A stretch of DNA of 64,000 nucleotides from Candidatus Nanopelagicales bacterium. Its GTDB lineage: Bacteria > Actinomycetota > Actinomycetes > S36-B12 > UBA10799. The DNA is taken from NCBI GenBank assembly GCA_018003655.1, contig JAGNDY010000002.1, forward strand, positions 926-64,925. Reading direction: 5' to 3'. A program made the position numbers and the translations under genes. Shown here in pieces: positions 8,427-38,668 of the stretch (position 1 is its first letter; each line of letters begins with the position of its first letter). The notes beneath the pieces were generated by a model. It was not told the origin of the DNA, made no database searches, and worked only from the letters and a program-made list of their open reading frames with translations.

Positions 8427-9206
8427 CTACGACCCGGCTGCCCGCTTGGTCACAACCCGGAAGACCGGCCGTGGCAGATGTCGCAAGGTCGACATCAACG
8501 GCCGGACACCCGCGGGTGCCCACACCAGCGAGGAACCCTTTCGCAAGGCTTTGACGGTCTGTTCGGCGACGACCTCCGGCGTGGTGGCCAACGGCGCGAC
8601 CGGCAAGCCCTCGGTCATCTTGGTGTGGACGAATCCAGGACGAACCACCAAAACCTGAATCCCTGATCCCACCAGCGAATCAGCCATTCCAGACGCCCAC
8701 GCATCGACGCCCGCCTTGGTGGATGCGTATACGTAGTTGTCCAGTCTCGATCGCTCGGCCGCCACCGATGAGAGCACCACCAACGAGCCATATCCCTGGG
8801 TGCGGAAGCGCTGAACCGCGATGGTGCCGGTGAGGATCGCGCCGGTGTAGTTGACGTCCAGCAACTGCCGGACGCCGTCGAGGTCCTGCTCGCAGTCCAC
8901 CCCGGTACCCAACAGACCGAAGGAACTGATGACGCAATCCACGGAGCCACCGGAGAACGCTGTGTCGAAGGCCGGCTCATATGTCTCCTGCTTGGCTGCG
9001 TCAAACTGCACAGCGACCACGTTCAGGCCTGGGTGTTCGTGCGATAACGCCGCTATCGCCTCCGCAGCGGAGTCCACGGAACGAACCGCCAAGAAGACGT
9101 CGGTCAACCGTCCGTCCTTCGCCAACTCGCGCACGATCGCGAGGCCAATCTCGCTTGTGCCTCCAAGCAACATGATTCGTTGCATCGCACCCAAACCATC
9201 GCGCAT
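8427..9206 (-). CDS. dprE2: decaprenylphospho-2-keto-ribose reductase (SDR)
   Basis: The N-terminus MRDGLGAMQRIMLLGGTSEIG has the Gly-rich NAD motif, YASTK is the SDR catalytic motif, and the C-terminus reads LVWAPAGVRPLMSTLRHLP. It lies directly downstream of dprE1. Alternative starts are 9224 and 9182. Confidence 0.8.
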   Translation of the reverse strand: MRDGLGAMQRIMLLGGTSEIGLAIVRELAKDGRLTDVFLAVRSVDSAAEAIAALSHEHPGLNVVAVQFDAAKQETYEPAFDTAFSGGSVDCVISSFGLLGTGVDCEQDLDGVRQLLDVNYTGAILTGTIAVQRFRTQGYGSLVVLSSVAAERSRLDNYVYASTKAGVDAWASGMADSLVGSGIQVLVVRPGFVHTKMTEGLPVAPLATTPEVVAEQTVKALRKGSSLVWAPAGVRPLMSTLRHLPRPVFRVVTKRAAGS

Positions 9207-9239
9207 GTCGTGTCCCACTCTCATAGCTACCGAGATCCC

Positions 9240-36502: not shown

Positions 36503-37910
36503 GAACTCTGCGGCGATGCTGCGAACACGAACCGTCTCCCCTGGCCGCCAGTGCAGTCGCTCAGATTTCAGCGGCTGGGGACGAACCACCTCATCGGTGG
36601 CGGAGGACTGCGTGGTCTCAGGCTACGCCGAATTGACCGAAGCAATCACGACCGCGAGTACGCGGGGAGTCATCGCCCGTGGATTCGGACGGGCCGCCGG
36701 CGACGCGAGCCAAAACGCGGGCGGACGAGTAGTTCGACTCGAAGGCGAGTTCAGCGAACCGGCAGTCCACTGGATCGATTGGGAACGCCGCGTAGCGCGG
36801 GTGAGCGCAGGCGCGTCATTCGCGGCGGTGATGCGGGCGCTGCTGTCACAAGGGTGGTTCCTGCCCACACCTGGGACCACCGGGCACATGACCATCGGCG
36901 GCGCGTTCGCCAGCGACCACCTCACCGCCGCCCAGTCACGCCGTGGGTCACTGGCGGCCAACACCGAGGCCGTCGGGTTGGTGGACGGCAGAGGTCGCGA
37001 GTTGCGCCTGGAACCCCGAGGCAAGTCCGCGCCAGAGTTCTGGGCAACCGCAGCTGGGCTCGGCATGACCGGAGTCATCACCAGCCTCGACGTCCGTGTA
37101 GTGCCGGTTACCTCCGCCTGGATGGTGGTGGAATCGGCTCGACACGACCGCATCGATGATGTGCTCTCCGACTTGGAGAGAGCGTCGTCGCTTTACCCGT
37201 ACAGCTACGCCCTGCTGGATACCTCAGCATCCGGTGATTGCCTTGGCCGCGGCACCGTGTCGGCCGCCCGTCATGCTGTCGTGTCCGAACTGCCAGAACA
37301 CCGACAACACGAGGCATTGGACTTCGATCAGGTTGGTGGCCGGGCTAGGCGTCGGCAAGTTCCCGACCAGTTGCTCAGGCCTGCCACGTCACGACTGGTG
37401 CAGGGTCTTGCTTTCCGAGCCGCTCCTCGCCGCGAGGTGGAGCAACTGCAGCCGGCGTCCATGTTCTTCCATGTCGACGACCGCTCGAGCTGGACGGCAC
37501 CGGTGAGCGAGCACGGCCTGCTCACCTACCAGGTGTCAATCCCGCAGGACAGAACGGACCTCATCGCCCATTTACTCGAGGGCCTCGCCAACGAGCGGAT
37601 CGTCAGCCAACGCTGTCTGCTCATAAAACTGGCTAACCATCAATCCGGTGCCCTGTCGTTCGAAACACCGGGGTGGGCATTGTCGATCGAGTTCCCGCAA
37701 CAATGCCAACAGCTTTCGGCCACGCTGGATACCTTCGATGAGCAACTCGCGGCCGCCGGTGGCCGCGCGGCATTGTCCAACGATGCCCGACTACTGGCCG
37801 ACGTGGCTCCGGCGATGTATCCGAACCTGCCGGTCTGGCAATCTGCGCGCTCGCGGCTCGATCCAGAGCACCGATTCAGGTCTGACCTCGTTAGCAGGCT
37901 CCAACTGTGA
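36492..37910 (+). CDS. DprE1-like FAD-binding protein with degenerate active-site blocks
   Basis: Aligns end-to-end with the ORF at 9240-10604 (ARGFGRAAGDASQNAGG; C-terminal DPEHRFRSDLVSRL). However, SDVHGKNHH reads SDHLTAAQS and YFTKDSR reads ALSNDAR. Confidence 0.7.
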   Translation: MRSKNSAAMLRTRTVSPGRQCSRSDFSGWGRTTSSVAEDCVVSGYAELTEAITTASTRGVIARGFGRAAGDASQNAGGRVVRLEGEFSEPAVHWIDWERRVARVSAGASFAAVMRALLSQGWFLPTPGTTGHMTIGGAFASDHLTAAQSRRGSLAANTEAVGLVDGRGRELRLEPRGKSAPEFWATAAGLGMTGVITSLDVRVVPVTSAWMVVESARHDRIDDVLSDLERASSLYPYSYALLDTSASGDCLGRGTVSAARHAVVSELPEHRQHEALDFDQVGGRARRRQVPDQLLRPATSRLVQGLAFRAAPRREVEQLQPASMFFHVDDRSSWTAPVSEHGLLTYQVSIPQDRTDLIAHLLEGLANERIVSQRCLLIKLANHQSGALSFETPGWALSIEFPQQCQQLSATLDTFDEQLAAAGGRAALSNDARLLADVAPAMYPNLPVWQSARSRLDPEHRFRSDLVSRLQL

Positions 37911-38668
37911 TCGACGGAATGGGCAACCTGCAAAGCATCGCGGTTCTCGGTGGCACGGACCCAGCCGCACTCGCTGTCGTCGACCATTTGATCGGTCCTC
38001 GCCTTGCCCGGGTCGCGATCGCGGGGCCACCGACCGCGCGTCTGGCCGACGCCGCCGTCCGGATCGAGGCGCTTGGGGTCAGGCACGTCGCCACCCACGC
38101 GTACGACCCGTTGCGCCCTGGCGGAAACCGGCCCCACATTGACGAGATCTTCGATGCTGGGGACATCGACTTGACCATCGTGACGGGATCGGTGACCCAC
38201 CTCCTCGAAGCCATCGGCCCGGAACCCACAGATGACCAGGTGGCTGACCTGGTAACAGCGAACCTCACCTCACCCATGGTCAGCTCGCTGCAGGTCGTCG
38301 ATCGACTGCGTCGACAAGGCCACGGTCTGCTCGTGGTGGTCAGTCGTACGACCGGTTCAGCATCGAGCCGACTGAACCTGGTGAACAGCGGCATCCAGAC
38401 CGGGATCGACACGTTCGGGCTACGCGCCGTCGAGGCTCTACGAGGCAGCGGAGCGCGCGGCGTCGTCGCACGACTCGACGATCCGGCGAGCACATCGAGC
38501 ACACTCGCCGCCGACGACGAGATCACGCGGATGTTCTACGCCGAGGCCGCGTCCGAGATCGCCAAGGCGATTCGGTCAAAACGCCAGCGCGTCGTCTACT
38601 ACCCGGGGTCTGCCAAGGCAGCTTTCGCCAGCGCCGGTCGGTTACCGAGCCGACTGAGCCGTCACTAG
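37907..38668 (+). CDS. DprE2-like SDR-fold protein lacking NAD and catalytic motifs
   Basis: The N-terminus MIDGMGNLQSIAVLGGT parallels DprE2. However, GGTSEIG reads GGTDPAA and YASTK reads NSGIQ. GTGA overlap with the preceding gene. Confidence 0.6.
   Translation: MIDGMGNLQSIAVLGGTDPAALAVVDHLIGPRLARVAIAGPPTARLADAAVRIEALGVRHVATHAYDPLRPGGNRPHIDEIFDAGDIDLTIVTGSVTHLLEAIGPEPTDDQVADLVTANLTSPMVSSLQVVDRLRRQGHGLLVVVSRTTGSASSRLNLVNSGIQTGIDTFGLRAVEALRGSGARGVVARLDDPASTSSTLAADDEITRMFYAEAASEIAKAIRSKRQRVVYYPGSAKAAFASAGRLPSRLSRH

Follow-up and report, generated by a model that had tools for sequence, protein, structure and literature searches.

Candidate envelope-glycan modules interleaved with coaE, rpsA and polA in an uncultured actinomycete

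Introduction

Among the described systems closest to the locus reported here, the tmaT locus of Corynebacterineae groups aftD, a tmaT-type acyltransferase gene of the AT3 family, lmcA/pgfA, mmpA and a glycosyltransferase gene (PMC8698533; bioRxiv 10.64898/2026.07.31.741767). It acts in the acetylation and export of trehalose mycolates, in the maturation of lipoglycans and in the synthesis of arabinan, with its members acting in at least two or three pathways in model organisms (PMC8698533; bioRxiv 10.64898/2026.07.31.741767; PMC9678360). The three-component systems of Gram-negative bacteria provide a precedent for a MOP-superfamily flippase that handles polyprenyl-phospho-pentofuranose donors (PMC11127046). 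A further point of comparison is the arabinan machinery of mycobacteria and corynebacteria, with its enzymes for decaprenyl-phospho-arabinose (DPA). In Mycobacterium tuberculosis the DPA genes lie beside aftA/emb. Here a 64-kb stretch of contig JAGNDY010000002.1 (Candidatus Nanopelagicales bacterium; 64,000 nucleotides, hereafter the window) was analysed, in which ~23 genes for cell-envelope sugars and lipids surround the housekeeping genes coaE, rpsA and polA.

The reading favoured here, and considered moderately probable, is that the region combines four modules around the housekeeping genes, which have a donor (DPA) and a cellular compartment in common, and that it represents an expanded version of an arrangement common to many Actinomycetes. 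The region would be assembled from mostly known modules, not from the genes of one new polymer pathway. The modules are (i) a DPA operon that ends in coaE; (ii) a set of GT-C glycosyltransferases; (iii) a tmaT-type block between polA and rpsA; and (iv) a flippase operon with a degenerate pair of DprE1/DprE2 paralogues.

Results

Gene identities were assigned from the listing of open reading frames (ORFs) together with Pfam and NCBIfam scans, with the NCBIfam equivalog cut-offs serving as curated thresholds. Every gene type named in an earlier, sequence-only reading of the window was recovered by these scans where that reading had placed it, and three genes that it had overlooked were added: a DUF3068 gene (23059-24066), a methyltransferase gene (MT2; 18767-19636) and a small membrane ORF (14516-14893). 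The polA-rpsA and rpsA-coaE intervals measure 15.8 and 13.0 kb, respectively, against medians of 6.0 and 1.4 kb in 80 other actinomycete loci. Gene order was the same in all of the ten longest contigs examined, which derive from independent metagenomes or metagenome-assembled genomes (MAGs) and encode an identical RpsA, and in a second species (comparison loci L095 and L097; ~83-97% protein identity) a single 62.7-kb contig spans the whole arrangement; an assembly artefact is thereby excluded. The module borders lack the long direct repeats, the tRNA or the sharp step in GC content by which a recent mobile insertion would be recognised.

The RpsA of the window shares 87-92% identity with those of two uncultured actinobacterial MAGs and ~80% with those of Kribbella, Jiangella, Streptomyces and others (one genome per species). 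By this marker, the host would belong to the class Actinomycetes, as an uncultured lineage that is not closely related to mycobacteria or corynebacteria.

Synteny was determined by tblastn of all window proteins against the 80 RpsA-centred loci (one genome per species, 10-kb flanks). The order polA-rpsA-coaE-uvrB was general among them; in M. tuberculosis these genes are near-adjacent (Rv1629-Rv1633), although a literature search gave no citable source for that order. Homologues of the AftD-type, AT3, GT4, MT1, MmpA or flippase proteins lie between polA and rpsA in L012, L026 (Jiangella), L040, L045 and Kribbella, and the interval from rpsA to coaE holds ubiA-dprE1(-dprE2) in Yinghuangia soli (L089; Kitasatosporales) and in the MAG of L091 (GCA_037133175.1). 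Counted by gene, a DUF3068 homologue stands upstream of rpsA in 25 loci (many Streptomyces included), a flippase was found in 10, an AT3 in 8, and GT4, MT1 and MmpA in 2-4 each. AftD-type matches occurred in 10 loci, being full-length in L012, Jiangella L026 and L040, truncated by the locus edge in L045 and confined to the C-terminal domain in Kribbella. None of the 80 loci had a homologue of the heptose-type gene trio, of the AT3-SGNH acyltransferase, of the second AftD-like protein or of MT2. Since envelope genes occupy the polA-rpsA and rpsA-coaE slots in other loci, their interleaving with the polA-rpsA-coaE-uvrB backbone is widespread, and among the loci compared here the window is the most expanded. 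The implied threading of envelope genes through a clean backbone in this lineage specifically is not supported by the comparison, as Jiangella, Kribbella, several MAGs and Y. soli share such interleaving; judged by the refuting condition that the sequence-only reading had itself set, the arrangement is a shared one.

Relatives differ greatly in what these slots contain. The L011 locus is minimal, and the rpsA-coaE slot (11497-16901) of L012, which is the closest relative on a long contig, is occupied by two GT2 genes, a DUF2304 membrane protein, a protein with 12 transmembrane (TM) helices and a member of the same GT-C family as a 602-aa protein of the window; this set, standing where the window has its DPA genes, looks like a hexose-type three-component glycosylation system. 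Such variation would be expected if adjacency were historical synteny only, that is, if functionally unrelated modules had gathered at a site permissive for envelope genes. This explanation is nevertheless unlikely: DPA synthesis co-occurs here with three DPA-type GT-C enzymes, the DPA genes and the flippase module also stand together around rpsA in the independent MAG of L091, and the genes inside the modules are translationally coupled.

The same comparison bears on whether the whole 30 kb is a dedicated locus for a single new polymer of arabinofuranose and heptose, O-acylated and O-methylated, as the sequence-only reading had proposed. The parts are contiguous, their full set is conserved in the second species, and donor synthesis, GT-Cs, acyl- and methyltransferases, GT4 and flippase could in principle make one pathway. 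The modules, however, occur apart: the loci of L012, Jiangella and Kribbella carry tmaT-type genes but no DPA genes, that of Yinghuangia carries DPA genes but none of tmaT type, and that of L011 has the flippase module alone. Moreover, the polA-rpsA half is homologous to the tmaT locus, whose proteins serve different pathways in model organisms (PMC8698533, PMC9678360), and a priming enzyme, a polymerase and a heptose nucleotidyltransferase are all missing from the window. A single dedicated polymer locus is therefore quite unlikely, and the composite of modules is preferred.

The best-supported function predicted in the region is DPA synthesis, because UbiA, DprE1 and DprE2 all exceed their equivalog cut-offs and keep their catalytic motifs intact. 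The genes lie on the minus strand in the order MT1 (11476-12216; a class I S-adenosylmethionine-dependent methyltransferase matching Pfam Methyltransf_11/25/23), the ubiA-type decaprenyl-phosphate phosphoribosyltransferase gene (10601-11479; NF008978, 341 bits versus a cut-off of 207), dprE1 (decaprenylphosphoryl-ribose oxidase; 9240-10604; NF053785, 569 versus 500 bits), dprE2 (decaprenylphospho-erythro-pentofuranosid-2-ulose 2-reductase; 8427-9224; NF053786, 266.5 versus 250 bits) and, as last gene of the operon, coaE (dephospho-CoA kinase; 7822-8424; Pfam CoaE, 189 bits). Neighbouring genes of the operon overlap by 4 nt or stand 2-15 nt apart. The ubiA ORF extends to 11620; with the start assigned on matching contigs, the protein has 292 aa and its gene overlaps the neighbouring gene by 4 nt at each end. 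DprE1 matches the M. tuberculosis DprE1 structures in the PDB with an E value of 1e-114 and, in the alignment, retains H132, K134 and K418, while the motifs of DprE2 are intact (the Gly-rich GGTSEIG, SSV and YASTK, with Ser, Tyr and Lys present). Cys387 of M. tuberculosis DprE1 is the covalent site of benzothiazinones; because Ala stands at this position in the window, resistance of the enzyme to benzothiazinones that act covalently would be expected.

In the proposed first module, phosphoribosyl pyrophosphate and polyprenyl phosphate would be converted by UbiA, DprE1 and DprE2 to decaprenyl-phospho-ribose and on to DPA. For the decaprenylphosphoryl-5-phosphoribose (DPPR) 5-phosphatase of the Rv3807c type, the 64 kb yielded neither a PAP2 protein nor any other phosphatase candidate apart from a GmhB-like HAD protein, and the enzyme may be encoded elsewhere in the genome. 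MT1, the first gene, is possibly MtrP-like: its homologues (43-49% identity) adjoin GT4 in L012, L026 and L045, and mtrP adjoins a glycosyltransferase gene in the tmaT locus (PMC8698533; bioRxiv 10.64898/2026.07.31.741767).

At the other end of the operon, the dprE2 stop had been placed 2 nt before the coaE start, and the sequence bears this out exactly, reading TAG(8429-8427)-CG-ATG(8424-8422); the N-terminus of CoaE is a canonical P-loop, MGNVRVGLTGGIGSG. The junction is devoid of RNA structure (z +0.4), consistent with co-transcription. The two genes are almost certainly co-transcribed, and coaE would be expressed as a passenger of the DPA operon.

The second module comprises three GT-C glycosyltransferases. 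The first is an AftD orthologue of 1401 aa (27486-31691, minus strand), identified by Pfam GT-C_AftD (671 bits), CBM_AftD and F5/8-C. It matches M. abscessus AftD (6W98) over residues 14-1343 (E 3.5e-152) and is collinear with the solved AftD, with an N-terminal GT-C_AftD domain, carbohydrate-binding modules (CBMs) and a C-terminal TM bundle. The second (1253 aa; 15009-18770, plus strand) is an AftD-family paralogue (GT-C_AftD, 160 bits versus a cut-off of 26) with the 8+4 TM layout of AftD; it is only 24% identical to the AftD of the window, its CBM_AftD match reaches only E 0.012, and a sequence search of the PDB gave no match. Its relatives form a large separate clade (36-41% identity) drawn from Ornithinibacter, Knoellia (Intrasporangiaceae), Jiangellaceae and MAGs, and all 120 of the 120 homologues listed score nearer to it than to AftD. 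By these matches the clade is widespread in non-mycolate actinomycetes, and the earlier distinction of two AftD types was correct.

The third GT-C protein (602 aa; 19642-21450, minus strand) has 10-11 TM helices and a C-terminal beta-sandwich; its gene starts 9 nt past the rpsA stop and converges on the AftD-like and MT2 genes. No match was found for it in Pfam, in NCBIfam or among PDB sequences, and a profile of 113 sequences likewise gave nothing significant in PDB sequences. A word-indexed search returned eight homologues and an exhaustive search 794 representatives. In the alignment of 113 family members, D39, C508 and C587 are invariant and D40 is present in at least 90%. D39, which forms an Asp-Asp pair with D40, follows TM1 in the first outer loop, and C508 and C587 pair in the C-terminal beta domain. 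An AlphaFold (AF2) model on the deep alignment reached pLDDT 94.9 and pTM 0.93; a model from six sequences (pLDDT 62) was discarded. Foldseek with this model returned EmbC, EmbA and EmbB first (E 1e-6 to 1e-4), followed by STT3/PglB, AftD, Pmt4 and ALG9: all 18 of the 18 best matches are GT-C enzymes (Emb, STT3/PglB/AglB, AftD), at modest TM-scores of 0.32-0.40, and the beta-sandwich matches CBMs. Furthermore, 4 of 50 relatives match Pfam PMT_2. The 602-aa protein is thus predicted to be a GT-C glycosyltransferase outside the named Pfam and NCBIfam families, and a modelled GT-C fold can now be given to a family of ~800 representative proteins without a name. In L057 and Kribbella L013, genes of this family have AT3 and DUF3068 genes nearby.

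The three GT-C proteins (AftD, the second-clade paralogue and the 602-aa protein) would use DPA at the outer face of the membrane and add arabinofuranose to envelope glycans. Two candidate tailoring genes stand beside them between coaE and rpsA. An AT3-SGNH O-acyltransferase gene (12372-14447, plus strand; Pfam Acyl_transf_3 and SGNH) is divergent from MT1; its best NCBIfam match is SucT, far under the cut-off (121 versus 1275). The MT2 methyltransferase gene, on the plus strand (Pfam Methyltransf_23, 84.7 bits), overlaps the AftD-like gene by 4 nt. The AT3-SGNH acyltransferase and the methyltransferase would tailor the GT-C products. The small membrane ORF (minus strand; 125 aa, two TM helices) is called on all matching contigs and has no family match in the Pfam and NCBIfam scans.

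The third module lies between polA and rpsA. The DUF3068 gene, on the minus strand, encodes a PgfA/LmcA-type protein of the Rv0227c family (Pfam PorA, 212 bits) that passes the NCBIfam PgfA equivalog NF053601 (225 versus 160); proteins of this type are envelope lipid traffickers (PMC9678360). The AT3 acyltransferase gene (26496-27677, plus strand; Pfam Acyl_transf_3, 130 bits), TmaT-type by position, is convergent with aftD, and the 3' ends of the two overlap by 192 nt, the same overlap being present in the gene calls on matching contigs. AT3 also adjoins AftD in L012, L040 and Kribbella, and in C. glutamicum TmaT, an AT3 protein, is reported to bind AftD physically (bioRxiv 10.64898/2026.07.31.741767). 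A GT4 glycosyltransferase gene (31877-33025, plus strand; Pfam Glycos_transf_1 and Glyco_transf_4) and the gene of a polytopic membrane protein of the MmpA or Rv0226c family (577 aa; 33372-35105, minus strand; NF053599, 436 bits versus 210) complete the set. Two polytopic proteins besides the AftD types had been described as GT-C-like: this description holds for the fold of the 602-aa protein, and the other of the two is the MmpA-family protein, to which a glycosyltransferase role could not be assigned. Its likeness to a GT-C was not confirmed by BLASTP against AftD (E 0.56); MmpA is reported to resemble glycosyltransferases by Foldseek (bioRxiv 10.64898/2026.07.31.741767).

By homology, the polA-rpsA half corresponds to the tmaT locus: AftD, PgfA and MmpA are orthologues of its members, and the block would couple arabinan synthesis to lipoglycan and envelope-lipid export. 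Given that the PgfA and MmpA equivalog models, which were built on mycobacterial proteins, were both passed, and that an AftD orthologue and DPA synthesis are present, the host might have a mycolate-type outer membrane, with AftD, AT3, PgfA, MmpA and GT4 acting in trehalose-mycolate acetylation and export tied to arabinogalactan. This is highly unlikely, because RpsA, the two MAGs aside, is nearest to those of non-mycolate lineages (Kribbella, Jiangella and Streptomyces, ~80%), homologues of the same genes occupy the same place in the non-mycolate Jiangella and Kribbella, and no pks13, fadD32, mmpL3 or mycolyltransferase gene was found in the 64 kb. The favoured composite has its tmaT-type block in a host that is probably free of mycolates.

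The tmaT gene set also occurs, together with a full DPA pathway, in an uncultured lineage whose nearest named RpsA relatives make no mycolic acids, and tmaT-type sets stand in the same place, beside rpsA, in several actinomycete lineages. Both observations suggest that the tmaT-type locus has an older and more general role in the export of envelope glycans or lipids than has been studied so far.

Within this block lie three genes of heptose type on the strand of rpsA and upstream of it: an HddA-like GHMP heptose-7-phosphate kinase gene (25344-26375, minus strand; Pfam GHMP kinases; NF049969, 263 bits, under the cut-off of 600), a GmhA-like sedoheptulose-7-phosphate isomerase gene (24751-25347, minus strand; Pfam SIS_2; TIGR00441, 163 bits, under 209) and a GmhB-like HAD-IIIA heptose bisphosphate phosphatase gene (24161-24754, minus strand; best NCBIfam match NF006506, 148 bits, under 178). 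Neighbouring genes of the trio overlap by 4 nt. M. tuberculosis has a comparable gmhA-gmhB-hddA cluster (Rv0113-Rv0115). Because none of the 80 comparison loci contains a counterpart of the trio, and because AT3 and the DUF3068 gene are direct neighbours in L012 with no trio between them, the trio is a lineage-specific insertion into the tmaT-type block.

The fourth module, the most novel part of the region, stands next to polA (38703-41396, minus strand; Pfam DNA_pol_A and 5'-3' exonuclease domains), a gene of the backbone. Its first gene encodes a MOP-superfamily flippase of the Wzx/PST type (421 aa; 35237-36502, plus strand; Pfam Polysacc_synt, 33.7 versus 28.2) with at least nine TM helices by a crude hydropathy scan (~12 in the family). 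A longer, 580-aa form of this ORF has no Pfam match and overlaps mmpA by 400 nt; it was set aside as a spurious 5' extension, and a PDB sequence search with the flippase ORF found nothing. The ORF had also been tried as an Rv0227c homologue, an assignment that was dropped because the PgfA equivalog turned out to be the product of the DUF3068 gene.

The flippase gene is followed by a DprE1 paralogue (36492-37910, plus strand; NF053785, 311 bits, under the cut-off of 500) and a DprE2 paralogue (37907-38668, plus strand; NF053786, 118 bits, under 250), and the operon ends 34 nt from the polA stop. Both active sites are degenerate. Relative to M. tuberculosis DprE1, the first carries H132L, K134A and K418N, with the glycines of the FAD-binding domain kept. 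The second has GGTDPAA in place of GGTSEIG and NxxxQ in place of the YxxxK of short-chain dehydrogenases/reductases (SDRs), and gives no match to the Pfam SDR family adh_short. Between the two species, the ratio of non-synonymous to synonymous substitution (dN/dS) is 0.165 for the DprE1-like and 0.154 for the DprE2-like gene, compared with 0.129 for mmpA, 0.045 for polA and 0.029 for the flippase. With such values the paralogues are under purifying selection and are not decaying pseudogenes. The degenerate pair of the sequence-only reading is thus confirmed by sub-threshold scores and by lost catalytic residues: judged by these residues its members are homologues of DprE1 and DprE2 but not functional members of either family, and annotation of the pair as 'DprE1/DprE2' would be wrong as far as enzymes are meant.

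The operon of flippase, DprE1-like and DprE2-like genes recurs beside polA in L011 (4751-8278), L091 (3539-6934), L094 (2022-5468) and L095 (8746-12177). The flippase and DprE1-like genes overlap by 11 nt, and the DprE1-like and DprE2-like genes by 4 nt, where gene calls exist (L091, L094 and L095). None of the copies retains K134 or K418 in its DprE1-like protein or the SDR Lys in its DprE2-like protein, and in some the His or the Tyr is gone as well. L091, which has canonical dprE1 and ubiA across rpsA from the flippase operon, amounts to a minimal version of the window. A metagenome scan for further loci with a dead DprE1 gave one 2-kb contig, and no description of DprE1-like pseudoenzymes or of a linked flippase was found in the literature searched.

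Two further observations concern the surroundings and relatives of this operon. An extra lipoprotein gene (465-476 aa) lies between it and polA in L011, L091 and L094. K134 is also lost in another group of DprE1 homologues (P0041, P0044, P0047, P0050, P0054, P0056 and P0057), most of them Streptomyces proteins, and some members of this group have lost K418 too.

With a flippase coupled translationally to catalytically dead DprE1 and DprE2 paralogues, the fourth module probably handles a polyprenyl-linked sugar, most plausibly DPA. A more specific idea, speculative and unlikely to be right, is that the operon is a DPA export device in which the paralogues still bind the lipid-linked pentose and each other and pass the donor to the flippase. 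If true, it would be a concrete candidate for how DPA crosses the membrane.

Expression of the region was considered around rpsA (21460-22938, minus strand; ribosomal protein S1, four Pfam S1 domains). Scans for consensus promoters and terminators stood at shuffle background, and a repeat search located two hairpins on the sense strand. A hairpin of 25 bp (21387-21438, minus strand; ΔG −52 kcal/mol, z −7.6), a candidate terminator or attenuator, begins ~22 nt past the rpsA stop and 12 nt past the start codon of the 602-aa GT-C gene, inside its codons 5-21. A perfect 20-bp hairpin (23001-23043, minus strand; ΔG −51 kcal/mol, z −7.1), a candidate terminator, lies between the pgfA-type gene and rpsA. 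The synonymous divergence of neighbouring genes between the two species is 0.5-1.0, yet both hairpins are conserved: in the second species the former shows one compensatory change from C-G to A-U with its arms otherwise unchanged, and the latter is kept in L097. That two conserved hairpins of about −50 kcal/mol bracket rpsA argues for its insulation from its neighbours and for attenuated expression of the 602-aa GT-C gene. The transcriptional entanglement with housekeeping genes that had been suggested therefore holds in part: dprE2 and coaE look coupled by their 2-nt spacing and the unstructured junction, whereas at rpsA the conserved hairpins argue against free read-through.

The rest of the window (22 kb) is housekeeping in content (aroB, aroC, mltG, alaS, aspS, hisS and others). 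On the far side of coaE, between it and uvrB, lies a gene for an AMP-dependent ligase (6361-7800, plus strand), homologues of which (50-54% identity) hold a similar place, between rpsA and uvrB, in L012, L028 and L067. An ORF with weak AbiEi_1 and DUF559 matches (4989-6351) separates the ligase gene from uvrB; it is bracketed by 50-nt inverted repeats (5009-5058 and 6302-6351, 82% complementary), with a 25-nt hairpin at 6251-6325, and the region may be a small inserted element. Beyond polA, a tRNA-Leu(CAA) gene (44009-44085, plus strand) overlaps the 5' end of a long ORF (43990-45861) for an alpha/beta hydrolase, so the true start of this ORF is placed further downstream.

Discussion

Several points weigh against the composite reading. 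The window holds no galactan or mannan synthase, no AftA, AftB, AftC or Emb, no priming phosphoglycosyltransferase and no DPPR phosphatase; with the acceptor-building and priming enzymes absent from it, the polymer or polymers concerned cannot be named. The donor specificity of the AftD family and of the GT-Cs is not readable from sequence, and the organism is uncultured and known here from its DNA alone. The assignment of AT3 to TmaT and of MT1 to MtrP follows from domain family and gene position, and that of the transcription units from spacing and RNA folding. All three proteins of the heptose-type trio score under their curated cut-offs, though their best matches are GmhA, HddA and GmhB, and no HddC-type heptose nucleotidyltransferase was found in the 64-kb window.

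The co-presence of a DPA donor operon, GT-Cs, acyltransferases, methyltransferases and a heptose-type trio, as first reported, stands, and so does the view that this is no textbook locus for arabinogalactan or lipoarabinomannan. How far each part resembles a described system can be given in turn.

The D-glycero-alpha-D-manno-heptose-1-phosphate pathway (GmhA, HddA, GmhB and HddC) is matched by a SIS isomerase, a GHMP kinase and a HAD-IIIA phosphatase encoded by translationally coupled genes. It differs in that the trio of the window stays below the curated thresholds and has no HddC-type partner in the window.

With the arabinan machinery of mycobacteria and corynebacteria (UbiA/Rv3806c, DprE1/Rv3790, DprE2/Rv3791 and AftD/Rv0236c), the window shares the donor enzymes, above threshold and with catalytic residues kept, and a full-length AftD orthologue with CBM domains. 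Unlike that machinery, its DPA genes form an operon with coaE in a host that falls outside the mycolate genera by RpsA similarity. Emb, AftA, AftB, AftC and an Rv3807c-type phosphatase are missing from the window, its DprE1 has Ala at Cys387, and it carries in addition the second-clade AftD paralogue and the unnamed GT-C.

The three-component pentofuranose systems (Kelly et al. 2024, PMC11127046) also combine in one locus a UbiA-type polyprenyl-phosphoribose synthase, Araf (arabinofuranose) epimerisation of the DprE1/DprE2 type, a MOP-superfamily flippase and a GT-C in which TM1 is followed by a periplasmic loop and the C-terminus forms a CBM-like domain. In contrast to theirs, the flippase of the window matches Polysacc_synt (PST/Wzx) and not MatE, so that the two share the MOP superfamily only; its synthase has no fused phosphatase domain, several GT-Cs are present instead of one, and the host is Gram-positive.

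Like the tmaT locus, finally, the window clusters AftD, a neighbouring AT3, a PgfA/LmcA-type protein, MmpA and a glycosyltransferase. Its version, however, sits between polA and rpsA and is interrupted by the heptose operon, and its possibly MtrP-like methyltransferase gene is found in the DPA operon instead. Because the host is probably without mycolates, the known substrates of the tmaT locus, trehalose mycolates, may not exist in it.

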